A stretch of DNA of 64,000 nucleotides, taken from contig OZ296649.1 in assembly GCA_965655095.1 (NCBI GenBank), forward strand, positions 128,960,001-129,024,000, written 5' to 3'. The translations under genes were made by a program, and so were the position numbers. The DNA is from Haplodiscus bocki. Its lineage: Eukaryota. This document shows positions 40,301 to 64,000 of this stretch, in pieces. The notes beneath the pieces are model-generated. The model worked only from the letters and a program-made list of their open reading frames with translations. It made no database searches and was not told the DNA's origin. How positions within the stretch are numbered: the stretch's first letter is position 1; the number at the start of each line of letters is the position of its first letter.

Positions 40301-42846
40301 CCTGGAAAAAGATTCCTCAAAATTGAGCCATTTTTTTGTCGGAATCTACGGTTAACACCAAACAAATCTCTTTTTGACCATAATGCAGTGTATATGGTGA
40401 CACACCAATAGGCAGTTATTGACCGCAGACCAATCAAAACCGGTGAAAAGTATTGTTATAATCGATTCTGGGTGGAAAATGTTGGCTGGTAATACCCATG
40501 ACTGCATTGTCCCACACGAATTGATCCAATAACAGACAATGCATGAGACGTCCAAACGTTAGGGATGGCAGACCGAGTATGTTTGATAACGGCAGCTTCG
40601 GTGATGGGAGCTGACTTTGTGATTCTGAATGACTGTCGAACGATTGCGTCTCTGCAAAATCATTCCTCTATCAGTTTGATGTGTATGTTATGTTGTATAA
40701 ATGTAGTCAAAAAGACTGATCACATCGGAAACACAGCAGGGCACACTGAGAACAGTTTTCCAGAGTTCGGTGTGGAATTTTGCACTTTTCTCATAAACGT
40801 TCATTAGCCGATGTTTGGGAAATACCATGTTTGTGGACCGTTGCTTGTCACCCGTCAGTGTATCCCTTCTAGTTCCTGTTTCAGTTGCCAATTCGAGCGT
40901 TTATTAACTCAAACGATCATTCTTTTCCCCGAAGAAAAATGTTGTCAAAACGACGACGGTTTTGTCGCGGGTGTACTAAGTTATTGATTGTTTGCTATTG
41001 TTCTCGCTAGCTAATATTGCTGAGCGGCGTGTGCGGCCATATGTCTGCGTTATCGTGTAAGAAAGTCTCAAAAGCTTACACTGTTATTAGCTTTGTAAAT
41101 TTGCCTTGCTAAACCGCGCGAACAAATTTGCGTAAGTTCTACTAGCAAGGACTTGGTGAGCAAAGAAAGAGTATGAAATAAGAGATGAATTATTTGGTGA
41201 ATATACGGAAATGGCAGTCAACTTGTACAAAGTAAATGTGTACAAGATAAGATGAAATTTCCGATGGGTGAGAATATTAGGGGTGAAATTTGAGAAATCC
41301 AAATTAATAACTTTCAGTAGCCACCTTCTAAATTTTATAAAGCAACTTCTACAAATTCACAACCATTATAATATCAATTTTAACTGTAATATATCAATTT
41401 TGTATCACACGACTGTAATATAGAATAAGCAATTTTACCCGCGAAATCCAAAGAATTATTCTTCTATCCACTGTATATTTATTCCCTTGTATAATATTCG
41501 AAGATATCAAGAAATTTCCAACACAAAGATATCAACCAGAAAGTATCCAAAATTTTACAATATCCAAAATATTCGAAGAAAGAATTTATAATAGATTCGA
41601 AGTTTATCGCATGATAAATTCGAAGATAATAAATTCGAAGTTTAAGGCATCGCAGTTTTAATAAAGCATAATAAGTCAGATTTAACAATAAGTTTAGCTG
41701 AAATTTTTATTATTCAAATAAATGGAGTAAAACAGCAATTGACAATATTAAACTTACAAATCTTCCCAAAAATTATTGGAAATGTTTATCTTGAATAAGT
41801 TGAGGTAAGTTTTGGCAGTGCTTTTTATTTTTGGAGCTAGGACGAATGGTAACATTCGTTGTTTCTAGCTTGGCCTTTTTGCCCTTTTTGTTTTGTGTAG
41901 TTTTACGCTTATGTTGTATGTAAGTTTTAGCTAAGACTTCGGTAACATGCCATAAAGCAGTCAACCGAGTCAATTTTCTTAAGTTCCTCCTTTAGTCAAG
42001 TGTTGTCCACTGACGAGGCGCTTTCAAGTATTTCGCTTTTAGTTAGTAAGTTGTCTGTTTTAGCTTTTTGTCTACGACTATGGTAACGGGCATAGAGCAG
42101 TTAACCAAGTCAGGTTTCTTATGGTCCTCTTTTGGTCAAGTGTTAATCCACTGACGAGGCGCTTTCATGTATTTTCACTTTTAGTCTAACGACTCAGTAC
42201 TTGTTTAACATAGTAACTGGCCGAGAAATCTTAATCCCCTTTTCGTCCATACCGTGACATAGTCCTCGGATTTTGTTGGAGGGGTTTGAATTGTTTTAGC
42301 CTTTTAGATTTTATCTAAGACTCAGTGTTACTCGTGTCTACGGTTACTGAGCTGTTTTCTCTTATGTTCCCTTGTCTCAAACGCGGTAGTTTACTCGCGT
42401 AATTGTTGAGTGGGTTTATCTTTTACTTTTGCAATTTTCGAATAACCAGTAGTTTATTAACTGACTGGGTTTGGAGTGCAAAAATCTTCTAAGAATTTCT
42501 AGAGAGATTTACTCTGCTAGTAGATGAAACTAGAAACTCACGAATACCATCGTTGAAGTTGAGAAAGGGTGTTGATGTTCGGGTTCTCCAGGTCTTTGGT
42601 GGCTGTTCGAGTCTGTTAGAAGTTGCTCGCTAAGAAGCGGTAGGAAGTTAGAAGTTGAAGAGGAAGTCGAGAAGAGTTCCGCCTCGCGGATTTAAGCAGG
42701 TGAATTGTGGCAAGCGAATGAATACTATGGAAGTGCGCAGGGTATCTATACCCGGATGATTACGTGCCCTTTCAATTTTGGGCGAGAGCCAATAGGATCA
42801 TTCGACGAGCGAATCGAAAGCAGTTAAGTTGGCTCTGTATAATAGA

Positions 42847-43248
42847 AATTTAGCAAAGACAAGTTTAGGAGTTGTCTTAGAATAATTCTAGTTGAGTGGA
42901 TGGAGAGATTTGGCAAAGACAAGTTTAGGAATTGTCTTAGAATAATTCTAGTTGAGTGGATGAAGAGGTTTGGCAAAGACAAGTTTAGGAATTGTCTTAG
43001 AATAATTCTAGTTGAGTGGATGAAGAGATTTGGCAAAGACAAGTTTAGGAATTGTCTTAGAATAATTCTAGTTGAGTGGATGAAGAGATTTGGCAAAGAC
43101 AAGTTTAGGAATTGTCTTGGAATAATTCTAGTTGAGTGGATGAAGAGATTTGGCAAAGACAAGTTTAGGAATTGTCTTAGAATATTTCTAGTTGAGTGGA
43201 TGAAGAGATTTGGCAAAGACAAGTTTAGGAATTGTCTTAGAATAATTC
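42847..43248. repeat. 60-bp tandem array (~6.7 copies) in 3' LTR
   Basis: Same unit as 61500-61901. Confidence 0.95.
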
Positions 43249-43497
43249 AATGATGAGCATTTTAGTTTGAAATTAGGATGAGGGCGAAGAGAAAGAGAGT
43301 TTCGCCTCGGGGAAATAGGATAGTTAACTGAGGAGAGCGATTGAATAAAATGAGAATGTGCGGGGTATTTATACCCGGGTATGGCGCAATCGAGTGATCG
43401 TCCAATAGGAGAGCGCCTGAAGATAGCAATGTTTGCTTGGGAATCATTTGATCGGCGAGGAGAGGTGAGGAGTGGCGGTTGTTCAGAATTATTGAGG

Positions 43498-43682
43498 TTT
43501 TTGCGGCGAAGTCATGATTCGACTTTGAATATTTTCGCTGAAAGCGATTTTGCGGCTAAGTCAGAGTTTGACTTAGAATATTTTCGCTAATGAGCGTTTT
43601 GCGGCTAAGTCATAATTTGACTTAGAGTATTTTCGCTGAAAGCGAATTTGCGGCCAAGTCAGAATTTGACTTAGAATAATTT
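43498..43682. repeat. ~49-bp palindromic tandem repeat (~4 copies) in LTR (copy at ~62151-62335)
   Basis: Unit tttgcggctaagtcagaatttgacttagaatattttcgctgaaagcga, with internal inverted repeats ctaagtca/tgacttag and tcgct/agcga. Confidence 0.85.
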
Positions 43683-44426
43683 CGAAGATCAAGAAAGGCG
43701 AGAGAAGAGGAAGTTCAAAGTTTTTAAGAGTAGAGGCGAAGAGGAAAGAACAGAGCAAGTTGTTGACGGTAAGCGAGTGAGTGGATAAATGATCTCTTCG
43801 GTCGTGCCAAATGACTCTAAAATGGCATCATGCTGTTTTTTCATGCCACCAATAGGAAAACAGGGCATGATCGGCATGTCATACCTACTAGCCAATAGGC
43901 TGATAGTAGGATTTGGGCAAATTTGAAAATTTAATTTTTCTTCAATTTCGTCATCAATTTGTGCAATTCCACCCGAGTAATCTCATATCTCGCCCCTGTC
44001 GCCATAATAGCGGCAAATATTTAACCATAAACATAATCATCAGCTTTGTCGCCTCATAATCTGGTTTTCTGAGTTTTATCGTCTTGTATTTCCTGGGTCA
44101 CCAGGGTCTTTTATTTATTCGTAAATATCTGTGGCAACACCTCCGAAATTCCTGCTGGGTAAGTCAACTTTATTTCCTTCGTAATCTTAATTAGCTCGTA
44201 TTTCCTGTATAATTAACAAATATACAAACTGCACTGATAAATTTTGGTGTTTATCTGAAATCTGATAAATCTTGGGCTCGCCATTTTGGGCAAAAATCTC
44301 TCGAGGTTAGTTTCAACTTTTCTTTATTATAAAATCATAAAACTGCAATTTTTCATTAGGTTTAAGCGGTAGTCATAACGCGATAACTCACCCTGGTTAA
44401 AAGAGATGAAAAATGATTGGGGGGTT

Positions 44427-46400: not shown

Positions 46401-48566
46401 TTAAACGGGTGATACAGGAAGGGTAGAAAAACCCAATGCAGCGGAGTTAACCACTGGGTAAAGATGCTCTTCCTTCTTCTTAGCCTCCTCTCGCATCTCA
46501 TAGAGCTCTTTATCTACTCTAGGATCGGCGTTCTTAGATGCGCTAGATGCAAAACGATTTGCTTGTGGGTTATACATTGAAGTCATAACCGATGTCAAGA
46601 AAAAATTGTATGAAGCGCTCAGGAGGGTCTTACCAAACCCTAGTGAAGCACCGGTCATTCTGTTGATTTCCATGTGCCTTATTATCATAACAACCAGATC
46701 GATTATAAGCTTTAGGAATAGAAAGACTGAGAAATAGATTCCACAGTGTTCGAGAATATAAGCAACTGGTCCAAAGGTATCCATAAAACGATCCTTGAAA
46801 TATTCTGGGGATATCATCTTGTCAACATAGAACTCTGTTCTTGGAGTGTAAGAGTGGAATCCGTCAGGACCTTCGTGAGCATTGGAGTAGATAATTAGGT
46901 TCTGCGAAAACTTCTTTAAACCTGTTCTGGAAGCGGCGTTAATCAGGATGTTATCCCAGAATCCACGAAGTTCGCTTCTAGTGTACATGCCTGCATCTTG
47001 TGATCCAGTGAGGGATTGTGCAGTCATCGGTGTAACTTGTTTAGGTCCAAAGACAGCAGGTTTATCTTGATGTACTATTCCAGGCGTGAGTGTATACCAA
47101 GAATCCTCTTGATCCATGTCAAGTTGAAAGAGATTCTTGATTCTATCGGAACAATTCTGTGTAACGGCATCAGGATAAGTTTGTCTCGTAATTGGATCAA
47201 CAAATCGAATTTCACCTTCATACAGGATGGGTATTCTATCATAGCACTGATTCATCGTATGAAGTGGTGATTGAACCATTGGACAGTGGTAAAGCCAAGC
47301 AAGACTGCCATCTGTTTCCAAGAACATTGATCTATTTCCTGTGAGCATGTAGCCTGCTAACCGGGGATTTTCAAGAGCTAACATTAGGTTAGTGAGGATT
47401 TGGGTACGTTCTTGTTCACACTGGTTTTGTAGTAGCTGTATTTCGGTCGCTTGAAGGAGTCTTGAACTTTGGAAGAACAGATAGTCTATCTTCGTTCCAA
47501 GGTGCATCTCATAATCCATATTCAAATAACTGTCAGGTTTATCTTCTTGTTTGAACTGTGCTCCTTCCAGCTGAGGGTTATGCACGTAAAGTTGACCAAA
47601 ATCGTTTTTCTCTCGGGGTCCTAAATACTGAAGTATTTTAGTCGCACCGTTCTTCTCACGGCCAAGATTTCTTCCAGTATCCATATCGAAAGCTTCACTG
47701 AGTCGAGCCATATAGAGCGAGTCGTAGTTTGTTGGATAAATTGGCGTGGGTTTTCCGCAATGCTTTTGTGGGTTGTTCTTTACTTCAAACACAAACTTGG
47801 ACGTAGAGTCTTTTCCACTAAGGACATAGTTTTTTCTGTCTTGCTTAACCATGTTGACATCTTCTGTTCGAAGAATGGATAGTACACAATTGTCCGGGTA
47901 ATCCCAAATATAGGCATATGGGTCGAGTGAAGTTGTTTCGCAGCCAAGTTCTTCTAGAGCACAAGGTAGGATCAGTCCCATGTCGGATAACACTTTTCCG
48001 TTTTCTATCGTGACTTTTAAAGTTGTTTTTTTTTGCATGTGGATAATAAAGGTATCCCGAGAAATCCAACCTCTCGTTTTGCAATGATTTCTGTTTGATC
48101 CCGTTGGATCACCAGAAACTTTAACCACAGGAGTCTTGGTATCCCATTCGGCGCCAATCCAATGGCCTTGTAAGTTGATACTAGCTCCTTTTGCAAGTGT
48201 TCGGCAGTGTTCTGGTGAGATAATCAAATCACTTGTTATTCCGGCAATAGTGTGGTCAATACTGCTGTGGTCGTTATGTCCACAGTGCCACTTCTCGCGT
48301 TGATGTTGAATGCGGCATTTGGTTGCGTTTAACTCTTTTCGAAAATGTTTGGTGTAAAGTGTAATTGTGGCTTTGCTGACTTCTAATTCTTCAGGCGTGA
48401 TGTGACACGGCCGTACTTGATTTATGGCATAGAGTGAATTTTCTGTCATCGAGCTGCAGTCAAAGTGAGACACTTTAAGAGCTGGGGCAACCTGATCTGC
48501 GTCTGGAACTAAATGAAACGTCACCTCGGTATAAACCACGAGGATTTGAAAGAAGAATAGCTTCAT
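46401..48566 (-). CDS. env: Envelope glycoprotein (~721 aa), chuvirus-G/herpes-gB-like class III fusogen
   Basis: N-terminal signal peptide, HFDC...PC...KCRI...WHCG Cys pattern, N-glycosylation sequons, helical core (LLQNQCEQER) and a C-terminal TM segment (IYFSVFLFLKLIIDLVVMII). Located after pol. Confidence 0.85.
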   Translation of the reverse strand: MKLFFFQILVVYTEVTFHLVPDADQVAPALKVSHFDCSSMTENSLYAINQVRPCHITPEELEVSKATITLYTKHFRKELNATKCRIQHQREKWHCGHNDHSSIDHTIAGITSDLIISPEHCRTLAKGASINLQGHWIGAEWDTKTPVVKVSGDPTGSNRNHCKTRGWISRDTFIIHMQKKTTLKVTIENGKVLSDMGLILPCALEELGCETTSLDPYAYIWDYPDNCVLSILRTEDVNMVKQDRKNYVLSGKDSTSKFVFEVKNNPQKHCGKPTPIYPTNYDSLYMARLSEAFDMDTGRNLGREKNGATKILQYLGPREKNDFGQLYVHNPQLEGAQFKQEDKPDSYLNMDYEMHLGTKIDYLFFQSSRLLQATEIQLLQNQCEQERTQILTNLMLALENPRLAGYMLTGNRSMFLETDGSLAWLYHCPMVQSPLHTMNQCYDRIPILYEGEIRFVDPITRQTYPDAVTQNCSDRIKNLFQLDMDQEDSWYTLTPGIVHQDKPAVFGPKQVTPMTAQSLTGSQDAGMYTRSELRGFWDNILINAASRTGLKKFSQNLIIYSNAHEGPDGFHSYTPRTEFYVDKMISPEYFKDRFMDTFGPVAYILEHCGIYFSVFLFLKLIIDLVVMIIRHMEINRMTGASLGFGKTLLSASYNFFLTSVMTSMYNPQANRFASSASKNADPRVDKELYEMREEAKKKEEHLYPVVNSAALGFSTLPVSPV

Positions 48567-49059: not shown

Positions 49060-49443
49060 TTAGTTGTCGTATAGATCAACGAGAGCGCGTAGGAGATTGA
49101 TCTGTGACACCTCGTGCAATGCCCCAAGGTTAGTGTCCATAAAATTCAGAAGATCGTCCAAGCTTTGATTTTCTCCTTTGTCCACTTTTTTGGAGATCTT
49201 CAGAGTCACAAAGAGGTTGGCGAACTCGTCTGTTTGGATAGTTATGGGGATTAATATTACAGCGAGTAGATTCTCAATCGCCTGAATTCTGACGTGAAGA
49301 GTGCTTTCGTCAGGAATCCAAAAGATGTTAGTTATTAAATGCTCTCCTTGTAGTGAAATAGGTGTCCACTTACAGCTAAGATTGACCCTTAAGAATTCTT
49401 GATTGTCAGCGGAGCGTCGCAATGAGGTTTCAACCAAATTCAT
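49060..49443 (-). CDS. Accessory ORF C, 127 aa (paralog of leader ORF u6)
   Basis: ATG directly after the ORF B stop. Motif similarity to 58415-58765. Confidence 0.7.
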   Translation of the reverse strand: MNLVETSLRRSADNQEFLRVNLSCKWTPISLQGEHLITNIFWIPDESTLHVRIQAIENLLAVILIPITIQTDEFANLFVTLKISKKVDKGENQSLDDLLNFMDTNLGALHEVSQINLLRALVDLYDN

Positions 49444-49665
49444 TCAAGATTTTCCGTTCTGGCTTTTGATGTGATTCGGAGGAGGGTTCATGAGGATTGC
49501 TTCAATGAAAGGGTAATGAGTTGATCCGGGTGAACAGAGGAAAGTCTTTATTTGATCGTTGTTAGTAGATTGGGTTGTCACCATGAAATCTTTTGTTCCG
49601 GTGATGAATGTTAGGCCCACTATGCATTGAAGTTGATTATCAATTCGTAGCAATATTAGTGTCAT
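49444..49665 (-). CDS. Accessory ORF B, 73 aa
   Basis: Flanked by TAG-ATG and TGA-ATG junctions. Paralog of A. Confidence 0.7.
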   Translation of the reverse strand: MTLILLRIDNQLQCIVGLTFITGTKDFMVTTQSTNNDQIKTFLCSPGSTHYPFIEAILMNPPPNHIKSQNGKS

Positions 49666-49887
49666 CTAAATTATGTTTTCTTTGTTTCCACAAACGATAT
49701 CACTGCGTATGTAGATATCTGCTGACAGCAAACTACGCAAGTGGTAGTAGTTTGGGGAGTCAGAGTAACACTTATATTCTTCCTCTAATCCTGTTTCTGT
49801 TTCCGTATGGATAAGGATAGTCGTTGCGTCAGATTTAATTTCGATTGTTTTCACTTTCTTCAATTGTCCGTCAATTTTCACATACAT
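49666..49887 (-). CDS. Accessory ORF A, 73 aa (paralog of ORF B)
   Basis: Stop TAG is directly followed by the ORF B ATG. Shares IDxQL...CxxxSxxYxx[LI]xx[LI]L with B. Confidence 0.7.
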   Translation of the reverse strand: MYVKIDGQLKKVKTIEIKSDATTILIHTETETGLEEEYKCYSDSPNYYHLRSLLSADIYIRSDIVCGNKENII

Positions 49888-50316
49888 TAGATCATAGCAA
49901 TCTGAGAATCAAATCATCAGAATATTTCATTGCTAGGATGATAGGTTTAGTCGTATGTAATATGTAAAATAAGTATTATTATTTAAAACTAGGTTCTAGG
50001 AATAATTTTATTTAGGTAAAAGGATATAAAATTGTTGCTGCGATGTCTTCTCTTGGAGCTTCTTCTTCTCGTTCTGCTACACTTGTTGTAGCAGGGCCTT
50101 CCGGGGGGAAAGGGTAAAAATAGGAGTCTTGTCGGTAGGGTAGGCGTTGGTTAGGAAGGTTGTGGGGCGGGTGGGCTGAATTCGGCCTGTAAAGGCGAGT
50201 TCACTGGCGGGTTGGTAGGTGTCCCATAAGAAGATTGCAGTGAACAAATGTGCAAAGGAGTCGGGATAAGAGCAGGGGGGTCGTCGTTTCCAAATCTAAT
50301 TCTTTTGTGTTGTAGG

Positions 50317-50957
50317 ATGGATCAACCAGGACCTTCTTCCAGAACTACTATTCCACAGTTAATTGAAAGCCCGGAAAGTCCTACTGGGTCGAATGCTTCT
50401 GGTATTTCCGTCAATAATGATAATGTTCTACGAGTTGGAATAGAAATTCCGTTAGGGATCGGACTAGAATCTTCATCAGAAGATGAGTACGAAGAGCCTT
50501 CCTCGGAGGAAGAAATGTATATAATGTAAATAATGATGATGGTAACGGTCCCGGAAATCAGGCTGCCCAAGTTGACTACGGTTTCGACGAGGATTTTATT
50601 GGGGACGGCCAATTTACTCTTTATTCTCGTCGGGACATATACCTCTTGAAAGGCTGGAGAGCATATGTTTTGGAGCGACGGAGTTGTCGCGGCTTCTTAA
50701 TTCCGGAGCCGCCAATTCCAGAGCGCCTAGTTTTGGTCTTGCGAGCTATGACCGGGGCCAATTGGCAAAAGGCTGTACTTAGTGGCTCTGGGGAGTGCAT
50801 TATCGAAATGTTATCAGCGGCTATCACTGGGTATAGTATAACAACAGCGCGAGAGAGAAGAGAGTTCCTGCGTCTGTTTGGTGTTTGGGCCAACTCAGAG
50901 TTCCGGGCGGGTCTGCGCGACCTAGCGGCTCGGGGTGGCTTCCTGGACCTCGATTAG
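50317..50957 (+). pseudogene. Antisense accessory ORF (~210 aa; acidic N-terminus, helical C-terminus), frameshifted near 50520
   Basis: MDQPGPSSRTT...EDEYEEPSSEEE joins by a frame change to YNVNNDDGNGPGNQAAQVDYGFDEDF...GWRAYVLE...FLDLD*. Preceded by ctaattcttttgtgttgtag|gATG. Confidence 0.5.
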
Positions 50958-51516: not shown

Positions 51517-54500
51517 TTAGAGTTTATAACCGTGGCGTGTTTCAGTGCGTAGCAATGATTCAGCGTCAGGATGATCTGGCTGAGATCGATTGTATTTGGG
51601 TTCTTTGTTTTGATACTTCCGGGTATTATGGCGAATCAATCGCTCAATAGAATTGAGTGGCTGACTAGGCGGTATAGGAGAAGTTATTAACTGTGATGTA
51701 GAAGGGTTATTTATGGGTGTCCGAGGTGAATGACTGAGTGGCTGAGGCGGTATTGTAGGAGAAAGAGTTGGAGGTGAGTTAACACCAGAATCATCACTCG
51801 TATTACTGATTCTTTTTGGTGGGAGAACAGTTGGTGTTGAAGATAAAGGCACTATAGGGAAAGGAATTGAATCGCCTTTAGTGGTTTCTTTTGGGTTTTT
51901 CAACTGTTGTACCCGTCGTTCCATGAATCGTTCGTAGAAGTTATCTCTATGTGCATCTGAAGGGACATACTCCTCAATCATTGGAGGCAAAGATTCTTCT
52001 TTAGGATAGTACTCGACTAAATGGTTTCGATGGACTGTTTTGAGCATTGTAGGGTCTTTGTCGTCTTGGATCTGGTAAGTGGTGTTTGTAATCCGTTTTG
52101 TCACTGTGAAAGTTCCTAATCTGCGTTGTTGAAGTTTCTGACTTTTGGATAAATCCTGTCGATGATTTTCATACAAGACCTTCTGGCCCATGTCAAGGTG
52201 ATGTCCTAGTTTGGATCTGTTGCGATAGGCATGTGATTGTGCTGTCTGCTCACGGCGTCTCTCAAAGGTGGCAGAATAGATCCGTTTACAGTCTCGTTCT
52301 CGTTCCAAAAAGGTTTGAGAAAGCTGTGGTTTCAGAAGGTTATCTAGTAGTTGATTCTTCAAATTGTTTTCGCTATGCGAGTGTGAAGGTAGGTCCTTGC
52401 AAAACTCCGAACAACAGAGTTTATGTTTATTCCTGCAGAGACCAAGTTTTATTGACATTGGTATCTGTGGCTTTGTTCCAAAGACTATTTCGTAGGGGGT
52501 CTTTCCAGTGGTGTAGTTCACACTGGTGTTATGAGCAAAGGCAAATTTGGGTGCTAAGGAAGACCAATTAGTCCCAACATCATTCAAAAAATTTCGCCAA
52601 TACCGAGCGATGTGTTGGTTTTGCGTTTCTACTTTGCCATTTGTCCATGCTGTTCGTGGGCGTAAAGTGATTCCAAGTTCTTTTGCCCAGTTGATAAAAT
52701 CAGAGTTGATGAAGGCGGTGCCTCGATCGTGTATGATAGATTGAGGGATCCCAATGGAATGTATCCATTTTTCAACGGCGGCAATTGTGGCTTGAGCGCT
52801 GGTGTTGGTAACTGGATACACCATTAAGAAACGAGAGAAAGCATCAATCACTAGTAGGCAATGAAGATTGCGGTTGCTTGGCGGATGGAGTGGTCCCTTA
52901 TGATCGATGTGCACCGTACGGAAAGGTATGGCATCATTCTGCCATTCCTCTAAAGGAACTTCGTTCCTGTGTTTTGGTTTGGGTTTATTATTCTGACAAA
53001 TGATACAATCTGCCGTTAGAGCACAAATCCAATCGAACATCCCAGGCCAATAATAGAATCTTTTAGCATTGGCGTAGGTCTTAGAAGCTCCCATATGTCC
53101 ACCCATTTCATTGTAATGTCCTAGGCGAAAACAAGCGAGAAATAGTGATAGGGGAAGGCAAATTCTAAGATTCTCTTCGTCCAATTTGTCCGATGGTTCG
53201 TTATAACAAAGTAATTGTCCTTCAGTCTCAATGAGAAGCCTATCGAGTTCTTGACAATATCGTAAAAAGCCCTTCGATTGCTGAATTTTAGGTGATTTAG
53301 CATCAGGAGAGATTTGTTTGCGGACCCAAGAGCGTACAATTCCAAGGACAGGATCCTTGATTTGTTCGGCTAGAATAGTAGAGACGTCAAGATCTACACT
53401 TTTAGCAACTTCGTCAAGTTTTGCTATCAGAGCTTTTGTGTCCAAGTGAGGAGCTTCGGTAATAGTGAGTGGCTTTTTCGCTAATGAAGCGTCGATTTTA
53501 CCTAACACAGAATCGTGAGCTGTTTTTGCTTTACACAACCGATAGTGATCGACATTAGTGTCTACTCTGAAAATGTGGTCGTCTTCGTCCTCTTCCTTGT
53601 TATCTTCTATTTGATCAGTTGGTAAGGTAACTACGTTCGAAGCTCTGCATTCTTCTTCTTCAGTGTTTGAGGAGCTGATAGAGCTGTAAATTGAGTCAGA
53701 GTTTTCACGTAAAATTGGTGAATAGGATAGGGGGTAGCACAAGCGGCGGGATAGGTTAATAGTCTTGCCCATACGAAAACAGTCTGCAGCAGATTGGGCT
53801 AACAGAGTCGGGAATTCGTTGCTGATACTATTCAGTGTATAGTTCTCTCCGTCATTTTGCAATCTAAGGATCTTCTCATCATTTCCTTGTTGCCGATGTA
53901 TTGGGTAGAAGTCAATACAAGTGTCGTGTGGATTGTCCTCGTGTTGAATTTTGTAAATTACTGGGTTACCATGTTCGTCAAAAAACTCAATATCCTGGGG
54001 TATCTTTTTATGTTGTAATTGATGTTTTTGGTATCCTTCTAGGGTTACATTCCTGCTGAGAATATCAGGGAAAGCAAGGTTTGATCCGGGGGTCCAAATA
54101 ATTTTCAAATTCTGAAATTTTGTGATGATAACTTGATAGCGGAAAAATCGATGGGAAAGTTGTCCTTTGCGCCCCCATAAGTGCAGAATTGGTTTGTGGT
54201 CACAATAAAGATAGATCGGGAACGGAGAGCCAATAATGTAGTGTTCATAGGTTTGTAATGCAGAGACAATTCCACAAAGCTCTCTGTGAAGTGTGGACAT
54301 CTTTTGTTCAGCTTTATCGAAGACTCGAGAGTTAAAAGATATAACACGCTTTCCTTCCGGGAACTGCTGGATTAAAATACAGCCAGTACCAACATTAGAG
54401 CAGTCAACATGAATATGGAAAGGGTAATCCGCGGAAGGAACAGCAAGTATAGTGTCTTCACTGATTCTGTCTTTGATTGACTGAAAAAGTTTTTCGTGTT

Positions 54501-57056
54501 CATCTGTCCAGTGGAAGGATGTTGAGTCTTTAATCAAATCATAGAAGGGTTGACTGTCTACATGGAGATTTTTTATATAGCAACTGTAAAACCCGAGGCA
54601 ACCCAATACTTTCATCACATCAAGTTTGCATTCGGGAGATTTTAAGTTCTTTAAGTCTTTTACTCGTTTTGCAATCGGTTGTATTCCTTCTGGAGAAATG
54701 ACATGTCCAAGGAATTTCACTTTCTTTAAGAAGAAAAATGTCTTATCGGGAGCAGCCTTGAGACCAGCCTTGCGGAGGAGAGTATGGTATTCATTTATAA
54801 TAGTGAACATCTCGTTTTTATTTTGTGATTGCATGATCGTATCATCGATGTACGTTATGGCTTGTTTGTTCTTGATGAGAGGATCAAAATGAATTGTCAT
54901 CAGTCGGCTAAAGAAATTCGGGAGTCCGCATAGACCATAGAACCCTCGTGTGTATGTATATTGTCGTCCACCAAGGATAAAACTTGTAAGATTCTGGGTT
55001 TCGGGGCTCAAAGGCACTTGATGGTAGGCGCAAGACAGATCGCTCACAGAGAAGACTTTACCATTTACTCTCGTCATAATCATTTGTACGGGTTCCAGTG
55101 GCCAAGAATAGTTGGTGAGATCAGTTACTGAGTTGAGGTTCCGGGCATCGATGACGAGTTTAACGTAATCAGTTTTAGGCATCAAGATGATGGGGTTAAC
55201 AAAAAGTGATCCCATTTCGTCGTCGTCACCCATTTCTCGGATGATGTCTGCATCTTTAATTTGTGTTAAGAGTTTTTCCAGCTTTTCTTTCAAGTGTAAA
55301 GGTACTTTGCTGGGTCTTTGTCTCTTTAATTCTGCCTTGGGCTTCAGCGTTACATGGAACTTTTGACGTGTCTTGCCCACATCAAACTTGTGTCGAGAAT
55401 ATACGTCTTGTGAATCAAGTAGCATATCAATGAGGAGAGTCATTTCTTCATCAGTGACGTCAGAATACTGGAAATCGAATTCCTTGATATAATCCACAAG
55501 TTCTTTTGGTTGATATTGCAAGTAATGTTCAATAAGTCTGTTAGTGAGGTCTTTTCGCGTAATATAGGAAACTGTTCGTCACATGGAGGCTGACAAGATT
55601 TCGAATCTTTAGTGAAATCCGTCTCTAAATCTTTTTCATCGAGATAAAATTCTTCACTATATCGTTCTATTTCATCCTCTGCATAGAACTCAGGATCGCC
55701 TTCCGATGACATTGCATGAACACCGTGACTTTCCAGGGTGTATACCACAACATGGATGTCGGAATAAGCAAAAACATCACGCAATAGTTTCACCACCTCC
55801 TGCCAGTTCATTTGATCCAATCCGCAACCTATTTTCGGGATAGCGATTGTGGACACTCCGTGCATTGCTGCGTGAGACTTCATTGCCTCGAGAGTTGTAA
55901 AGAGAGTAGACATTTCCGGTTTGTCAAAAAACCGTTGTTTCGTCACGAGATTGTAAATATAGCGTCTGCTAGTAGAATCCCAAAAAGGGAACACTTGTCC
56001 GATCAAGAGTTTTGCTTTTTTACAGGTTGAACGAAGGCCAGGAATTTTATGGGAAAGGAAATCAGCGAATCCTTTACTCATTTTAGCATCAGCTGAGATG
56101 CAATGCCCGATTGAATTGGGTTGTTGAATAATCGAATTGTCATTTCCATACACAATCTGTAGGAACTCGTCGCCAGACTGTGCAGGGATTGTAGAATGCA
56201 AAAGGAAACAGTCGTTATAGCGTTCGTCTGTTGCAATGATGGCATTGGTTAAATCATAGGGACTCCGGATCTGATTTTTAGGTTCTTCTCGGTCCATTAC
56301 ATCGAGTGAAGAGAATCCAATTCTTCCTCTAGGAAGCGTGATTTGGTGGTTTTTGTTGTTTTCCATTAAGATAGGAAGATTTTTTTCAGATCGGGTACAT
56401 AACGTATTAACAAAGGATAAGCCAGTTGATACCGCCTGACGATTAGGTTGGAAAGTAGAGCCTGGTGGAAAATGGATTTGAGAGTCTTCGGGTGAATATT
56501 TGCAACAGCGGGCACTTTTGGCATCAATATACATTGTATAAGGTAGTCGAATGGTCAAGATCTGGGATAAGTGGGGATAGACTTTATTTTGATGAAAGCA
56601 ACCATAACAAAGTGAATTTGGAGGATTTTTTAGCTCTATTCCGGGCAGATCAAAATGGATTCCAGATACTTGTTTTTGGCAAAAGTCCATTCCAAGGAGG
56701 TTTTGCGTTTTCATTTCGGTTACCCAAACTGTTAAAGGAAACACGAACTGTCCATCTGGGTCGTAGCAGAAGGTTATACTTGCATAGCCAACCATAGGAA
56801 CTGTCTGTCCCGAATAAGTTTTAGTAAGTTTTGTACTTTTTTGTAATGTGATTGGGTGTTGCAGTTGGCAGATTTCCCAAAAAGTTCGATAAATGAATAT
56901 TGAGCAAGAGGCTCCTGTGTCTAACATAAACTCGATTTCCAAGCCACTATCTTTTTGCGTGTCTCCGGTGGCAAAGTAAAAGATATTGAAACTGAGTCTT
57001 AAGTTCCTAGATTTGTCTGAATTGGAATTCGGAGACCTTAGCAGTTTAACGGACAA
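51517..57056 (-). CDS. pol: Pol polyprotein: aspartic protease - macrodomain - RT - RNase H - integrase; one frameshift near 55553
   Basis: LDTGAS (protease), YIDD (RT), HVDCS/ELCG/CDHK (RNase H), HX6H..CX2C and IDHKGP..HDRG..KVE (integrase). ORFs 55440-57056 and 51517-55521 overlap in different frames around an A-run (GAAAAG). Confidence 0.93.
55735..56165 (-). other. TARG1/OARD1 (Poa1p-like) macrodomain within Pol
   Basis: SIGHCISADAKMSKGFA...RYIYNLVTKQRFFDKP...LEAMKSH...IAIPKIGCGLDQMNW...VVVYTL closely follows the OARD1 motif series. Confidence 0.9.
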
Positions 57057-58414
57057 AGTTCTGATAGTTCATTAATGCAATCATCAGTGGTGGTGAAACG
57101 AACCACGTTCGTTGATGTTTGATTGTTACTTTGCGGAAATTTCTGTTCGTAAGAAGAGGAACTAGTGATTGGGTTAGCATCTGATCTTCTAAATGGCGAA
57201 TTTCTAGGCTGAAAAGGCTGAGGTCGACGGAAAAAATTACCTTGAGAAAAGTCCCGTCTTTGTCCAGAGGGTGAACGAGAAAAATTTTCATTATTTCGCC
57301 AAGTTCCACTTTGACTATTGAAATTCCCATTATTCGATCGATTTCCATTGTTCCTATTAGGGAATTGGTCTGATCGCCGGTCCAATAATCTTCCACGGTT
57401 CTGGTTCTCCTGCCCATAATAGGAATTAGGTCGGTAAGAAGAGTTTTGATTGTTATTCCATTGTCCGGATCCATGGCTTGGTCCTCTTTTCTTATTATAA
57501 TCTTGGGTAAATGTAACTCTTTTTTCTGCAGTTCTTTCATTTTCGGTCTTTTTCAACTCTTCGTCTCGTATTTTCTTCCTGCACCAGCTGGGAGTGTGTC
57601 CATTCGTGCGGCAGTAATTACAAAATCGAGTAGCGTTTTGTCGTCCCTTTTGGTTTGGGTCCACGGGTTTGGAAGTGCCTTCCACAGCATTAACTCGATG
57701 TTCTTGCAGTTCAGTCCTTAGGTTTTTCATCTCTTGGCCCAATGAGGCCAGTTCGGCTTTAGTTTGTTCTTCATCATTTAAAAAATTCGAAGATACTTGA
57801 AAGGACACATCTTTTTGAATTATATGGGTTGAAAATTCATTCCAGGTGGCATTTTGGTGCTCCATTAGGTATTCTTGCGCTTTACGTTGAAGATATCCAG
57901 GTCTAAGTCCTCTCAGACTATAGTCCATGTATTGCTGTCTTCGTTGCCGGGCTTGGGCATCCCGTTCTGCATTTTGTTGAGCGCGGGCGATTCCGTTCAT
58001 ATCATCAGGCCAACCTTTGTCTACTGTCTTTTTGATTCTGTGAAGGAAATTACGAATTTCTTCTCCGTCTCTTCGAACACAGTGCTCTACTTCCAGTCGG
58101 TGGCGAAATTTGTTTCGTCCATCAGAGAATCGACTAATAAAGTTAGTTCGAATATCTTCCCATGGCGTAGCAGCTTCGATGGTGCTTCCATACCATTCGG
58201 CAGCGGGGCCTCTGAGTAGAGAGGAAAAAAGAGCTTTTTTGCGGAAATTGTAGTTGGCAAGGGCATCAGGGTTGGCAGGGGCATCTCCGAGAGCAAAGTT
58301 AATCTTTCGCTCTATGAGTTGTATGAAGGATTCAGCGTCTTGATCGGGGTCAGTTCCGGAAAATTTGTCTAGGGCTAGATCAGGGTAGGCTAGATGAGTT
58401 GCAGCGATAATCTT
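57038..58414 (-). CDS. gag: Gag (capsid + CCHC zinc knuckle); no ATG at the expected start
   Basis: The frame is open 138 codons upstream of the tracked ATG (KIIAATHLAYPDLALDKFSGTDPDQDAESFI...LRGPAAEWY...WEDIRTNFISRF), a typical retrotransposon gag N-terminus. Zinc knuckle CNYCRTNGHTPSWC. Confidence 0.9.
   Translation of the reverse strand, partial: KIIAATHLAYPDLALDKFSGTDPDQDAESFIQLIERKINFALGDAPANPDALANYNFRKKALFSSLLRGPAAEWYGSTIEAATPWEDIRTNFISRFSDGRNKFRHRLEVEHCVRRDGEEIRNFLHRIKKTVDKGWPDDMNGIARAQQNAERDAQARQRRQQYMDYSLRGLRPGYLQRKAQEYLMEHQNATWNEFSTHIIQKDVSFQVSSNFLNDEEQTKAELASLGQEMKNLRTELQEHRVNAVEGTSKPVDPNQKGRQNATRFCNYCRTNGHTPSWCRKKIRDEELKKTENERTAEKRVTFTQDYNKKRGPSHGSGQWNNNQNSSYRPNSYYGQENQNRGRLLDRRSDQFPNRNNGNRSNNGNFNSQSGTWRNNENFSRSPSGQRRDFSQGNFFRRPQPFQPRNSPFRRSDANPITSSSSYEQKFPQSNNQTSTNVVRFTTTDDCINELSELCPLNC
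57044..57050 (-). promoter_or_regulatory. Putative -1 ribosomal frameshift site G_UUA_AAC (gag-pol)
   Basis: CCG TTA AAC TGC TAA at the gag end; the -1 frame is the protease ORF. Downstream gtct...gaatt/aattc...agac can form a stem. Confidence 0.7.
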
Positions 58415-58765
58415 TTACTCAAACTTGAGATACAGATATTCTATCAATTCTTCCAAAATTCCAAGTTGAAAAGAATTTAAGTGGGGCTCAGGAAAATCTT
58501 CGTATTGATTAAGTGCGTCAGATAACGATTTAAGCAAGGGGTGATGGTCGTCTAGGTCTATCTGTTTCGAGAGATCTGAATTTCCTTCTGGATGTACTGT
58601 GACACGAATCCAGAAATCGTAATTGAATGTCCACTTCAAACAAGTGATTATCACCGTCAGGGTTTCGTCTTTGGATGATATGATCCAGGGGCAATTTAGT
58701 GGAACTTGTTTGCACTCGATTTCTGGTATTTTGTCCAATGGGGAATTGTCCAGTTTTTGTGGCAT
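58415..58765 (-). CDS. Leader ORF u6, 116-aa accessory protein of unknown function (paralog of ORF C)
   Basis: ORF track entry. Shares VxLxCxW...ITx[LI]xW...[IV]R[VI] and a C-terminal amphipathic helix with 49060-49443. In frame with gag across one TAA. Confidence 0.7.
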   Translation of the reverse strand: MPQKLDNSPLDKIPEIECKQVPLNCPWIISSKDETLTVIITCLKWTFNYDFWIRVTVHPEGNSDLSKQIDLDDHHPLLKSLSDALNQYEDFPEPHLNSFQLGILEELIEYLYLKFE

Positions 58766-58897
58766 CTAATTATTATTAGTCGATTCTCGTAAAATCTGAA
58801 CCAATTTAATGATAGCCAGTAAATAGTTTGGCGCCAAAAGTAGCAATAACGTAGCGAGAAGGAGGAAGTATAAGCTGAGTATATCGTCTTGTCTCAT
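58766..58897 (-). CDS. Leader ORF u5, 43-aa predicted membrane peptide (paralog of u2)
   Basis: MRQDDILSLYFLLLATLLLLLAPNYLLAIIKLVQILRESTNNN*. Stop TAG is immediately followed by the u6 ATG. Confidence 0.7.
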   Translation of the reverse strand: MRQDDILSLYFLLLATLLLLLAPNYLLAIIKLVQILRESTNNN

Positions 58898-58907
58898 CAA
58901 GATGAAG

Positions 58908-59072
58908 TTACGAAAACTGAATGGGTGGCAAAGTTTTAGGCAAGTTGAGGATGAACTGAAAAATAACGATTAAGTTCTGAAGGATGTACAATAGAACAAT
59001 GAGCTTCCGTGTTGGAGAGTACTCGTTCCAGTTCTCGACAAGATCGGGAAATATAATCAGAAAAAATAGCAT
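58908..59072 (-). CDS. Leader ORF u4, 54-aa hydrophobic peptide
   Basis: MLFFLIIFPDLVENWNEYSPTRKLIVLLYILQNLIVIFQFILNLPKTLPPIQFS*. ATG directly follows the u3 TAG. Confidence 0.6.
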   Translation of the reverse strand: MLFFLIIFPDLVENWNEYSPTRKLIVLLYILQNLIVIFQFILNLPKTLPPIQFS

Positions 59073-59207
59073 CTAGACGTCAAAGATCCTTCGACGATAA
59101 TAGGTGTGGAGAAGAGCGGGGCAACTAATGCACAGAAATGAGCCCAATTGTTGAAAAAGGAGAATGAGGGATGTCACAAAAACGATGAATATTAAGAAGA
59201 TCAGCAT
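59073..59207 (-). CDS. Leader ORF u3, 44-aa predicted membrane peptide
   Basis: MLIFLIFIVFVTSLILLFQQLGSFLCISCPALLHTYYRRRIFDV*. Flanked by TGA-ATG and TAG-ATG junctions. Confidence 0.65.
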   Translation of the reverse strand: MLIFLIFIVFVTSLILLFQQLGSFLCISCPALLHTYYRRRIFDV

Positions 59208-59339
59208 TCAGCTTTCCAATGTGTTATTGAAGACGATTCTGTGTAGTTCGATAACTGCCAAGAGGTAAGGAGGTATCAGGAAGAGAGTTATCACTGCTGT
59301 GATAAAGAAATAAAGCGTTATAATGAGTTCGTCTTTCAT
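59208..59339 (-). CDS. Leader ORF u2, 43-aa predicted membrane peptide (paralog of u5)
   Basis: Hand translation MKDELIITLYFFITAVITLFLIPPYLLAVIELHRIVFNNTLES*. Stop TGA is immediately followed by the u3 ATG. Confidence 0.7.
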   Translation of the reverse strand: MKDELIITLYFFITAVITLFLIPPYLLAVIELHRIVFNNTLES

Positions 59340-59536
59340 TCCGCAATTAATTCAACAACCAAGTTTTCACCAGTTGGGATTCTGCCTCGTCTTTTAGAGA
59401 TGAGTGTCAAAATCAAGCGAAGGAGGAATCCAATAGATATGCAATCTTTCAAAATTATCAGGCTGACTAAAAAGAAGAACAGAAGAAATGGAAAAATGTG
59501 GATCACTTTAGCAATAGCGTCAGATAATTTTTTCAT
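59336..59536 (-). CDS. Leader ORF u1, 66 aa, hydrophobic (uncertain)
   Basis: MKKLSDAIAKVIHIFPFLLFFFLVSLIILKD...ELIAE*. Its TGA overlaps the u2 ATG (ATGA). Part of the hydrophobic stretch coincides with a polypyrimidine/AG tract, so it may be spurious. Confidence 0.4.
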   Translation of the reverse strand: MKKLSDAIAKVIHIFPFLLFFFLVSLIILKDCISIGFLLRLILTLISKRRGRIPTGENLVVELIAE

Positions 59537-59596
59537 ATAAATATAGCTCCAACTAATATGCACCGTATAATCAAAAAAATTGCTCACACTTTGTGC

Positions 59597-59612
59597 CTCA
59601 CTGGTCGCACCA
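59597..59612 (-). promoter_or_regulatory. tRNA primer-binding site (TGGTGCGACCAGTGAG), possibly tRNA-Leu
   Basis: Starts with TGG 3 nt after the 5' LTR end, complementary to a tRNA 3' end ...CUCACUGGUCGCA-CCA. The isoacceptor identity is a guess. Confidence 0.75.
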
Positions 59613-61499
59613 GTTTGTCGCGGGTGTACTAAGTTATTGATTGTTTGCTATTGTTCTCGCTAGCTAATATTGCTGAGCGGCGTGTGCGGCCATATGTCTG
59701 CGTTATCGTGTAAGAAAGTCTCAAAAGCTTACACTGTTATTAGCTTTGTAAATTTGCCTTGCTAAACCGCGCGAACAAATTTGCGTAAGTTCTACTAGCA
59801 AGGACTTGGTGAGCAAAGAAAGAGTATGAAATAAGAGATGAATTATTTGGTGAATATACGGAAATGGCAGTCAACTTGTACAAAGTAAATATGTACAAGA
59901 TAAGATGAAATTTCCGATGGGTGAGAATATTAGGGGTGAAATTTGAGAAATCCAAATTAATAACTTTCAGTAGCCACCTTCTAAATTTTATAAAGCAACT
60001 TCTACAAATTCACAACCATTATAATATCAATTTTAACTGTAATATATCAATTTTGTATCACACGACTGTAATATAGAATAAGCAATTTTACCCGCGAAAT
60101 CCAAAGAATTATTCTTCTATCCACTGTATATTTATTCCCTTGTATAATATTCGAAGATATCAAGAAATTTCCAACACAAAGATATCAACCAGAAAGTATC
60201 CAAAATTTTACAATATCCAAAATATTCGAAGAAAGAATTTATAATAGATTCGAAGTTTATCGCATGATAAATTCGAAGATAATAAATTCGAAGTTTAAGG
60301 CATCGCAGTTTTAATAAAGCATAATAAGTCAGATTTAACAATAAGTTTAGCTGAAATTTTTATTATTCAAATAAATGGAGTAAAACAGCAATTGACAATA
60401 TTAAACTTACAAATCTTCCCAAAAATTATTGGAAATGTTTATCTTGAATAAGTTGAGGTAAGTTTTGGCAGTGCTTTTTATTTTTGGAGCTAGGACGAAT
60501 GGTAACATTCGTTGTTTCTAGCTTGGCCTTTTTGCCCTTTTTGTTTTGTGTAGTTTTACGCTTATGTTGTATGTAAGTTTTAGCTAAGACTTCGGTAACA
60601 TGCCATAAAGCAGTCAACCGAGTCAATTTTCTTAAGTTCCTCCTTTAGTCAAGTGTTGTCCACTGACGAGGCGCTTTCAAGTATTTCGCTTTTAGTTAGT
60701 AAGTTGTCTGTTTTAGCTTTTTGTCTACGACTATGGTAACGGGCATAGAGCAGTTAACCAAGTCAGGTTTCTTATGGTCCTCTTTTGGTCAAGTGTTAAT
60801 CCACTGACGAGGCGCTTTCATGTATTTTCACTTTTAGTCTAACGACTCAGTACTTGTTTAACATAGTAACTGGCCGAGAAATCTTAATCCCCTTTTCGTC
60901 CATACCGTGACATAGTCCTCGGATTTTGTTGGAGGGGTTTGAATTGTTTTAGCCTTTTAGATTTTATCTAAGACTCAGTGTTACTCGTGTCTACGGTTAC
61001 TGAGCTGTTTTCTCTTATGTTCCCTTGTCTCAAACGCGGTAGTTTACTCGCGTAATTGTTGAGTGGGTTTATCTTTTACTTTTGCAATTTTCGAATAACC
61101 AGTAGTTTATTAACTGACTGGGTTTGGAGTGCAAAAATCTTCTAAGAATTTCTAGAGAGATTTACTCTGCTAGTAGATGAAACTAGAAACTCACGAATAC
61201 CATCGTTGAAGTTGAGAAAGGGTGTTGATGTTCGGGTTCTCCAGGTCTTTGGTGGCTGTTCGAGTCTGTTAGAAGTTGCTCGCTAAGAAGCGGTAGGAAG
61301 TTAGAAGTTGAAGAGGAAGTCGAGAAGAGTTCCGCCTCGCGGATTTAAGCAGGTGAATTGTGGCAAGCGAATGAATACTATGGAAGTGCGCAGGGTATCT
61401 ATACCCGGATGATTACGTGCCCTTTCAATTTTGGGCGAGAGCCAATAGGATCATTCGACGAGCGAATCGAAAGCAGGTAAGTTGGCTCTGTATAATAGA

Positions 61500-61901
61500 A
61501 ATTTAGCAGAGACAAGTTTGGGAATTGTCTTGGAATAATTCTAGTTGAGTGGATGAAGAGGTTTGGCAAAGACAAGTTTAGGAATTGTCTTAGAATAATT
61601 CTATTTGAGTGGATGAAGAGGTTTGGCAAAGACAAGTTTAGGAATTGTCTTAGAATAATTCTAGTTGAGTGGATGAAGAGATTTGGCAAAGACAAGTTTA
61701 GGAATTGTCTTAGAATAATTCTAGTTGAGTGGATGAAGAGATTTGGCAAAGACAAGTTTAGGAATTGTCTTAGAATAATTCTAGTTGAGTGGATGAAGAG
61801 ATTTGGCAAAGACAAATTTAGGAATTGTCTTAGAATAATTCTAGTTGAGTGGATGAAGAGATTTGGCAAAGACAAGTTTAGGAATTGTCTTAGAATAATT
61901 C
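61500..61901. repeat. 60-bp tandem array (~6.7 copies) in 5' LTR
   Basis: Unit tttggcaaagacaagtttaggaattgtcttagaataattctagttgagtggatgaagaga repeats in phase with the 60-nt lines. Confidence 0.95.
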
Positions 61902-62018
61902 AATGATGAGCATTTTAGTTTGAAATTAGGATGAGGGCGAAGAGAAAGAGAGTTTTGCCTCGGGGAAATAGGATAGTTAACTGAGGAGAGCGATTGAATA
62001 AAATGAGAATGTGCGGGG

Positions 62019-62059
62019 TATTTATACCCGGGTATGGCGCAATCGAGTGATCGTCCAAT
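62019..62059 (-). promoter_or_regulatory. Candidate LTR promoter: TATAAATA box with inverted CCAAT box ~30 nt upstream (copy at 43366-43406)
   Basis: GGGTATAAATAC on the minus strand plus CCAATAGGA. A second similar module (TATAGATA + CCAATAGGA) lies at 61396-61446 / 42743-42793. Confidence 0.5.
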
Positions 62060-64000
62060 AGGAGAGCGCCTGAAGATAGCAATGTTTGCTTGGGAATCAT
62101 TTGATCGGCGAGGAGAGGTGAGGAGTGGCGGTTGTTCAGAATTATTGAGGTTTTTGCGGCTAAGTCATGATTCGACTTAGAATATTTTCGCTGAAAGCGA
62201 TTTTGCGGCTAAGTCAGAATTTGACTTAGAATATTTTCGCTAATGAGCGTTTTGCGGCTAAGTCATAATTTGACTTAGAGTATTTTCGCTGAAAGCGAAT
62301 TTGCGGCCAAGTCAGAATTTGACTTAGAATAATTTCGAAGATCAAGAAAGGCGAGAGAAGAGGAAGTTCAAAGTTTTTAAGAGTAGAGGCGAAGAGGAAA
62401 GAACAGAGCAAGTTGTTGACGGTAAGCGAGTGAGTGGATAAATGATCTCTTCGGTCGTGCCAAATGACTCTAAAATGGCATCATGCTGTTTTTTCATGCC
62501 ACCAATAGGAAAACAGGGCATGATCGGCATGTCATACCTACTAGCCAATAGGCTGATAGTAGGATTTGGGCAAATTTGAAAATTTAATTTTTCTTCAATT
62601 TCGTCATCAATTTGTGCAATTCCACCCGAGTAATCTCATATCTCGCCCCTGTCGCCATAATAGCGGCAAATATTTAACCATAAACATAATCATCAGCTTT
62701 GTCGCCTCATAATCTGGTTTTCTGAGTTTTATCGTCTTGTATTTCCTGGGTCACCAGGGTCTTTTATTTATTCGTAAATATCTGTGGCAACACCTCCGAA
62801 ATTCCTGCTGGGTAAGTCAACTTTATTTCCTTCGTAATCTTAATTAGCTCGTATTTCCTGTATAATTAACAAATATACAAACTGCACTGATAAATTTTGG
62901 TGTTTATCTGAAATCTGATAAATCTTGGGCTCGCCATTTTGGGCAAAAATCTCTCGAGGTTAGTTTCAACTTTTCTTTATTATAAAATCATAAAACTGCA
63001 ATTTTTCATTAGGTTTAAGCGGTAGTCATAACGCGATAGTTTTAACTTTTGCAGAAAGTGAGTACTTTGCAGAAGCCGTCATCATCGCAGAGGTTGAGCT
63101 GTTGAAAATCCTCCAACAAATTCAGACTTAAAAAACAAGAGAAAAAGATTGGGAATGTTCATATGTTTGTTGTAAACCTGGTTGACTAAGTTTCAGTTGA
63201 AAGCACATCCTGGAATATGGTTTGGTCAGTGTCTGAATGACCCCTCGGAATCTTATGCTGATTTTGAGCTACGAAGGAATCTGGACTTTCATGGCTGGAG
63301 CCAACGCAGGCCCTGATCCGAAATTTGTAGCAAGTTGTTGGGGATGGAAATAGTGAAAAGGAGAAATGACTCACTTTGTGAGTATTCAGACATCATCTTG
63401 CCTGCTGCAGAATGCAGTCATAGGCAGGTGCACTCCATTGATACATAGCAAACGAATGGTCCGAAATGCTTATCAGCAGAGAGAGGGTAGCGACTGTTGA
63501 TGCAGCCCGGAAAAGCGATGCAGCATGTGAAGTTCTTCCATTGTAGCAAGATTGTTCGTCCTGAATATGTAGTGTGATTGATGGTAAAAATGAAAAGAGG
63601 TCAAATGAGTTCATCTTGCTGTTTCCAGCAATTGATTGGCATGAAGGCCACGGTTGCCTAGCGTTTCTGACGAGCGATGGCAGCCTGCCCGTGTGGCCTA
63701 GACCAAATACTTTTCATTAAAGAACTCGCTCAGCACGTTGTTAGAACCCCTAAAAATAATGAGAACGACCAAGGACAAAATTTGCCAGCGAGCTAGGTCT
63801 ATTTGAGCTGAATCGGATGCCATTTATTTAGTTCAACACTACAACCACACTGCAATGAGTGCTGAAAAGTTTTTGTGTGACTGGGACGAGTTACCAGCAG
63901 TACGGTTGATTGTTACACGTACAACATATTGTTTGCAACCGAGAACGTCAAAAAAGACTCGGTGGCACTACTTGAAGAATGCAGTTGCTCATATTTTTCT

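Follow-up and report, generated by a model that had tools for sequence, protein, structure and literature searches.

Structure of the element and its leader

The window analysed here, a 64,000-nucleotide stretch of the 1.5-Gb genome of Haplodiscus bocki, contains a 22-kb LTR element on its minus strand, within which all the features described below lie on that strand unless otherwise stated. The element is a young, high-copy, env-bearing member of the Ty3/gypsy group: it carries LTRs, a primer-binding site, gag, a pol gene ordered PR-RT-RH-IN and env, and the best solved relative of its pol is Ty3 Gag-Pol (E 3e-51), the class being assigned by this match and by gene order. The 5′ LTR (59614..63038; 3425 bp) and its 3′ counterpart (40961..44385) differ by 16 mismatches. 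The LTRs contain 60-bp and 49-bp tandem arrays (61377-62337 and 42724-43684), and their ends in families A, B and D (family A being that of the window copy; see below) share a motif with complementary CCTTGC/GCAAGG arms (59750-59815 in the window), which folds no better than its shuffled versions. Outside the element, direct and inverted repeats of about 2 kb with 93-98% identity occupy 15015-22731.

The primer-binding site (59596..59612), which starts with TGG, is common to families A-D. From this site to gag extends a leader of 1.2 kb that is filled by six ORFs, namely: u1 (59336..59536), a predicted membrane peptide of 66 aa with a weak start (U at -3); u2 (59208..59339), 43 aa, with a predicted transmembrane helix, an LxPxY motif, an amphipathic helix and a start of moderate strength (G at -3); u3 (59073..59207), 44 aa, whose start abuts the u2 stop and which has an N-terminal hydrophobic helix; u4 (58908..59072), 54 aa, whose start abuts the u3 stop and whose hydrophobic helix is central; u5 (58766..58897), a 43-aa paralogue of u2 that starts 10 nt past the u4 stop; and u6 (58415..58765), a soluble protein of 116 aa with a predicted four-strand sheet and helices. 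A recheck of the sequence confirmed the positions, lengths and junctions of this chain as first annotated. An additional 9-codon uORF, u0, is found at the end of the LTR (59664..59693) in most family A copies; it belongs to the leader if transcription begins upstream of it, and many AUGs occur in the LTR farther upstream.

Between the primer site and 58285, the only minus-strand ATGs are at 59536, 59339, 59207, 59072, 58897 and 58765. The reported depletion was reproduced, since the interval 59533-58285 contains 5 ATGs where base composition predicts 18.0 and dinucleotides predict 19.7; none of the 64 triplets is more strongly under-represented there, and the opposite strand has 26. The initial annotation had extended the cassette to 58285 and had singled out u2-u5 as hydrophobic. 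The ORF chain itself stands, but u6 ends at 58415 and the stretch 58414-58285 is already in the gag frame, 58285 being merely the first out-of-frame ATG within gag. Similarly, u2-u5 are indeed hydrophobic, but the set is incomplete because u1 is equally so; u6 is not hydrophobic.

The seventh ORF of the chain is gag (57038..58408), whose start is broken in the window copy and is strong (A at -3, G at +4) in sister copies. pol (51517..57068) encodes protease, macrodomain, RT, RNase H and integrase in the -1 frame relative to gag, and is split across two frames near 55.5 kb in the window copy. The macrodomain match within pol (55443-57068; PF01661, E 2e-4) lies below the cut-off. A GTTAAAC heptamer, which we take to be a putative slippery site, immediately precedes the gag stop, pol following in the -1 frame. 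env (46401..48566) encodes a 721-aa Monjiviricetes-type fusion glycoprotein (PF24664).

Downstream of env is a TRAF-like gene (44427-45749) with a MATH domain (PF21355, E 3e-18), preceded by a Q/L-rich stretch that appears coiled-coil-like by eye; it encodes 405-440 aa in 8 of 10 sister copies, is interrupted by a stop in the window copy, and is possibly a decoy of host immune signalling. Upstream of it, an AUG-less frame of 207 codons (45749-46372) opens directly after an acceptor-like TTTTTTAG in 8/10 copies and ends with a stop/start overlap onto the TRAF-like gene. A Pfam search with this frame gave no match, and it is likely to be a spliced second exon. Finally, between pol and a second chain of small ORFs (see below) lies an ORF on the plus strand, antisense to the element (50248-50957), which spans 225-237 aa in 6 of the 12 listed copies and is fragmented in the window copy; selection is seen in its frame (odds ratios 0.30 and 0.08).

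Conservation of the chain in sister copies

The genome yielded 2374 candidate matches to the leader DNA and 4624 to u6, of which 40 and 150, respectively, were scored. We fetched 100 loci (the 30 best DNA matches, the 30 best u6 matches and 40 from lower in the u6 list), which gave 85 distinct leaders. The whole stretch is spanned by 82 of them, and 81 remain once a copy with 64% identity is dropped; having been selected for their similarity to the window or u6, these favour intact copies.

The starts of u1 to u6 are kept in 77, 79, 78, 81, 80 and 79 of the 82 copies, respectively, and the stops of u2 to u6 in 81, 79, 79, 81 and 77, with the identity of the stop swapping among TAA, TAG and TGA. 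The commonest spacers along the family A chain are 12-13, 0, 0, 10 and 0 nt, followed by 6 nt between the u6 stop and gag, whose start codon is present in 80/82 copies. The chain is kept as a whole in 40/81 copies and the three zero-nt joins in 70-74/81. The first junction is the exception: the ATGA join of u1 and u2 that had been annotated is present in the window copy but is specific to it (1/81), the spacer being 12-13 nt in 65/81 copies and u1 being 59-61 aa long in 66/81. Thus, the 66-aa u1 with its overlap, like the broken gag start, is peculiar to the window copy.

Selection on the encoded proteins and against stray AUGs

In order to measure selection, changes found in at least 3 copies (inherited, mostly via replication) were compared to single-copy changes (private, mostly post-insertion). 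The inherited versus private odds ratios of nonsynonymous to synonymous changes are 0.39, 0.14, 0.27, 0.26, 0.14 and 0.17 for u1 to u6 (p 2e-3 to 8e-13); the value for gag is 0.04. Shifted sense frames give odds ratios of 0.55-3.1, none of them significant. The signal is echoed in the antisense frame with shared third positions, and u1 has one further antisense frame that reaches p 0.03. No inherited stop is found, as opposed to 26 private ones. The leader is a conserved protein-coding cassette in which each ORF is under purifying selection in its own frame. The initial annotation had named loss of junctions and frames in sister copies, or neutral evolution of the ORFs, as grounds for abandoning its operon-like cassette; instead, junctions and frames are kept, all six ORFs show purifying selection, and this part of the proposal is borne out.

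AUG itself is also selected against in the leader. Gains of ATG there comprise 7 inherited and 33 private events, compared to 1640 and 2350 for all triplets (p 0.002), and none of the 64 triplets has a smaller ratio of inherited to private gains than ATG, which ranks 29th in gag. Silent choices that would create an AUG are used at 0/9 leader sites versus 22/42 control sites (p 0.007), and at 0/6 versus 93/241 in a second class (p 0.09); in gag, 10/13 and 2/4 such choices are used (12/17). Methionine is absent from 353 leader codons (5.2 expected), and synonymous shuffles of the leader are expected to contain 6.9-8.1 out-of-frame ATGs.

Related families and modularity of the cassette

Searches with gag homologues led to four further sets of loci (B, B2, C and D). 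Families B and B2 encode, in order, 38 aa, 43 aa (u2 type), usually a 7-codon bridge, 113 aa (u6 type) and gag; family C encodes 72 aa, three u6 paralogues (120, 117 and 113 aa) and gag; and family D encodes 61 aa, 43 aa, a gap, 41 aa, 119 aa and gag. There are thus at least four leader layouts, with three to six genes. Three metagenome contigs, one of them partly decayed, have B and C layouts and are 81-85% identical to the nearest genome loci. Beyond family A, significant selection is seen in each of the five u6-type genes examined and in the 41-aa ORF of family D; the 38- and 43-aa ORFs of family B, the 72-aa ORF of family C and the 61- and 43-aa ORFs of family D have odds ratios of 0.26-0.52, in the same direction and individually not significant.

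u2 and u5 are paralogues with 40% identity (z 11-14), and both u2-type and u6-type proteins are conserved at the level of residues across families and paralogues. A profile search returned 118 relatives of u6 at E<=0.001, the last few of which, being long proteins, are probably noise. A second stop-start chain precedes env (49060..49887, within 49060-49930) and consists of d1 (73 aa), d2 (73 aa) and d3 (127 aa), whose start codons are retained in 28-30 of 30 copies and whose odds ratios are 0.18, 0.11 and 0.30; three 2-codon ORFs lie upstream of it in most copies, and internal AUGs are present. d3 is a remote homologue of u6 (hhalign probability 80%, E 1e-5), its score exceeding those of 1000/1000 shuffles. 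In a distant family (loci L195-L202), a 78-aa ORF and a u6-like ORF are likewise found before env. Given the u2/u5 and u6 paralogues, the cassette expands by duplication; the u6-type genes before env indicate that it likely also shifts genes between sites, in one direction or the other.

ATGs are less strictly purged in these leaders, the mean observed and expected numbers being 6.7 vs 14.3 in family B, 9.3 vs 13.5 in B2, 9.6 vs 21.2 in C and 11.3 vs 17.8 in D. AUGs with A at -3 and G at +4 occur inside the u6-like gene of family C and of some B copies. They head ORFs of 3-11 codons, an outcome that chance gives at 51-69% of out-of-frame positions.

Predicted products

On hydropathy scales, u1-u5 each have one hydrophobic 19-mer (Kyte-Doolittle 2.4-2.8), with 0-23 residues ahead of the hydrophobic helix and a length of 43-61 aa in most copies. 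The helix is followed by a basic patch in u1 (4/8 residues) and u3 (3/8). The layout of the u2 type, with a helix, LxPxY and an amphipathic helix, is kept across 12 aligned sequences. The predicted fold of u6 is confident (pLDDT 85) and has no match among the families or folds searched.

FAST proteins were considered as a class for u1-u5. The myristoylation motif MGxxxS/T occurs in 0/5 of these peptides, and they depart from the size of sORF2/FAST proteins (63-107 aa with an ectodomain of about 30 residues; PMC11952523). The hydrophobic helix is seen in 5/5 and the amphipathic helix in the u2 type, the latter as read without a shuffle control. Because both the motif and the ectodomain are missing, and because an env gene is already present in the element, we do not file u1-u5 as FAST proteins. 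They may be viroporin-like, in which case they would form homo-oligomeric pores that conduct ions or solutes, or may act as immune antagonists, as the initial annotation suggested. Given the macrodomain and the TRAF-like gene in the same element, host-directed accessory roles would be plausible.

Translation of the leader

Among the 471 u1-u6 starts of family A, A at -3 is found in 1 and G at +4 in 2; u2 has G at -3 and the others U or C. The gag start has A at -3 in 77/79 and G at +4 in 79/79 copies, strength being judged by the start-context rule of PMC5902531, which may differ from the preference of this host. The abutting stop dictates the U at -3 of u3, u4 and u6, and the families share ancestry; these contexts therefore represent few independent events. 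The same gradient from weak to strong recurs in families B, C and D, including at starts that have no abutting stop, and in the two metagenome contigs that reach gag. In these respects the leader resembles that of RTBV: weak or moderate upstream starts precede a strong last start, and internal AUGs are absent from the upstream ORFs of family A and partly so in B, C and D.

Since scanning requires just such a lack of AUGs within the ORFs and such a rise from weak to strong starts, we favour leaky scanning, and it is rather probable, judging from these sequence features, that the leader is translated mainly in this way from full-length RNA. Such an RNA, presumably unspliced across the leader, would carry all seven ORFs; ribosomes would take or pass each weak start in turn, the rest being caught at the strong gag start, and scanning subunits would have to cross up to 1.2 kb. 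Ribosomes that finish a short ORF may add to the output through ordinary reinitiation at a nearby start, and the abutting stop-ATG joins may be kept because they are compact and place U at -3. The products made alongside Gag would be five predicted membrane peptides and a soluble protein, likely virus-like accessory proteins that help to release particles or to counter host defence. In families B, C and D, pure scanning cannot be the whole story: the extra AUGs of these relatives, some of them in strong context, mean that reinitiation after short ORFs must contribute there.

The initial annotation had instead proposed serial coupled termination-reinitiation, in which u1 is read and ribosomes stop and restart at each next ATG down to gag. 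We consider this unlikely as the main mechanism. It does account for several features: the family A spacers of 12-13, 0, 0, 10, 0 and 6 nt are kept, as are the positions of the stops even though their identity swaps; u1-u5 are short; the 7-codon ORF of most B copies has its stop abutting the u6-like start; and overlaps of the TGATG and TAATG kind are seen in other parts of the element. The well-kept zero-nt joins of family A also fit coupling. However, an elongating ribosome crossing an ORF requires no exclusion of AUGs inside it, nor does reinitiation require that the strong start be confined to gag, and the sole overlap, ATGA, is copy-specific. TURBS coupling involves an 18S-pairing motif and stop and start codons within 20-30 nt, start context not being needed (PMC10275272). 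As had already been remarked, there is no consistent UGGGA: TGGGA precedes any given start in no more than 0-7 of the 81 copies, the motif letters being those of the initial annotation rather than derived from the host 18S. No shared upstream motif and no stable structure directly after the starts were found. The commonest stop-start distances in family A do not exceed 13 nt, but spacers of 27, 45 (family C), 62 (family B, bridged by the 7-codon ORF in most copies) and about 219 nt occur in relatives, family D likewise falling outside the 20-30 nt range, and family C would need three restarts past ORFs of 113-120 codons.

Each ORF could also have its own RNA, through alternative cis-splicing, spliced-leader trans-splicing or staggered transcription starts. 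Splicing is likely elsewhere in the element, to judge from its sequence, the AUG-less 207-codon frame after env opening at an acceptor-like site in 8/10 copies, and in the leader itself a donor-like GTGAG at 59587 is present in 73/81 copies and pyrimidine-rich YAG sites lie within u1, u2 and u5. Yet families B and C lack a shared donor-like GTRAG in the interval from primer site to gag, the u2-type genes of B and D have not retained the AG, and no good acceptor precedes u5 or gag. Separate RNAs, which predict neither 1.1 kb free of AUG nor weak starts, are to us an improbable source of these products.

That the ORFs are mere uORFs throttling Gag, or chance frames in T-rich DNA, with inert peptides, might be argued from odds ratios above that of gag (highest in u1, 0.39) and from the five small ORFs of families B, C and D that are not significant singly; it is very improbable in view of the frame-specific purifying selection in all six ORFs, the residues of u2- and u6-type proteins conserved across families and paralogues, and the confident predicted fold of u6. 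Stop-codon readthrough fusing u2-u3-u4 and u5-u6-gag into polyproteins would suit the 4/6 family A joins that are in frame (0, 0, 0 and 6 nt), but is scarcely credible because stops swap among TAA, TAG and TGA and the frames vary, the spacers of relatives being mostly out of frame, and every ORF keeps its own ATG.

Comparison with known systems

The statement in the initial annotation that LTR leaders normally lack such arrays proved too strong. Drosophila elements of the MDG1 group (412, mdg1, Stalker, Tabor and Blood) have two small ORFs before gag, sORF1 and sORF2, which are selected and translated (PMC11952523); as here, they lie on the sense strand in the interval between 5′ LTR and gag and encode a membrane peptide and a soluble protein of about 110 aa (PMC11952523). 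Full-length RNAs of that group are unspliced, and sORF and Gag peptides have been detected (PMC11952523); the words reinitiation, IRES and leaky scanning are absent from the available portions of that source. In contrast to its two ORFs, the present leaders have three to six, with tandem paralogues; the order is reversed, the membrane peptides coming first and the soluble gene lying beside gag; the MDG1 group has no env, whereas the present element keeps its own; and the FAST hallmarks of sORF2 are mostly missing in u1-u5. In nackednaviruses, which also replicate by reverse transcription, the small ORFs smORF1 and smORF2 similarly lie before the capsid gene on an RNA that is not spliced, but they are two in number, FAST-like and from a non-enveloped virus (PMC11952523). 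Plant elements have extra ORFs upstream or downstream of gag-pol (PMC7264820), and neither 'upstream of gag' nor 'small ORF' occurs in the available text of PMC13524379. In the literature searched, we found neither a six-gene leader nor an LTR leader translated by leaky scanning.

With respect to mechanism, adjacent stop and start codons are shared with the TURBS of caliciviruses and influenza B and with the UAAUG of SART1 (PMC10275272, PMC5902531), but the present leader has no TGGGA motif and no stable hairpin after the starts, its relatives have spacers above 30 nt, and AUGs are purged inside its ORFs. The closer likeness is to ORFs I-II-III of RTBV and badnaviruses, in which small ORFs with weak starts and about 1 kb free of AUG precede the capsid-bearing ORF (PMC5902531). 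In RTBV, ribosomes scan 900 AUG-free nt beyond weak starts, and a strengthened upstream start reduces the output of the last ORF, while an added short uORF is without effect (original experiments as cited in PMC5902531); short internal uORFs are tolerated there, as proposed here (PMC5902531). RTBV and badnaviruses are, however, plant pararetroviruses with two upstream ORFs and entry by ribosome shunt, as opposed to six ORFs in an animal Ty3/gypsy element, and no shunt hairpin was found in the leader stretch tested.

Eukaryotic mRNAs seldom give more than 2-3 proteins from separate starts. It is tempting, if still tentative, to see in this enveloped animal Ty3/gypsy lineage a 'complex retrovirus' that does not depend on complex splicing, in which an expandable leader operon, with genes added, duplicated and moved, yields seven proteins from a ladder of weak starts. 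If so, this would be the longest natural leaky-scanning chain found in the literature searched, and it would supply novel membrane peptides together with a protein whose fold is not recognised, in an element that further carries a captured macrodomain, TRAF-like and antisense genes, and the second pre-env chain. Several unannotated membrane peptides and a u6-type protein escape standard ORF cut-offs. The family, with its thousands of candidate copies and four or more leader layouts, is a natural experiment on how many starts leaky scanning and reinitiation can serve in series and on selection at silent sites. Small accessory pre-gag ORFs, known from insect elements that lack env, are hereby extended to a lineage that has one, whose leader combines two known kinds of arrangement: small ORFs ahead of gag and a probable leaky-scanning ladder of starts.
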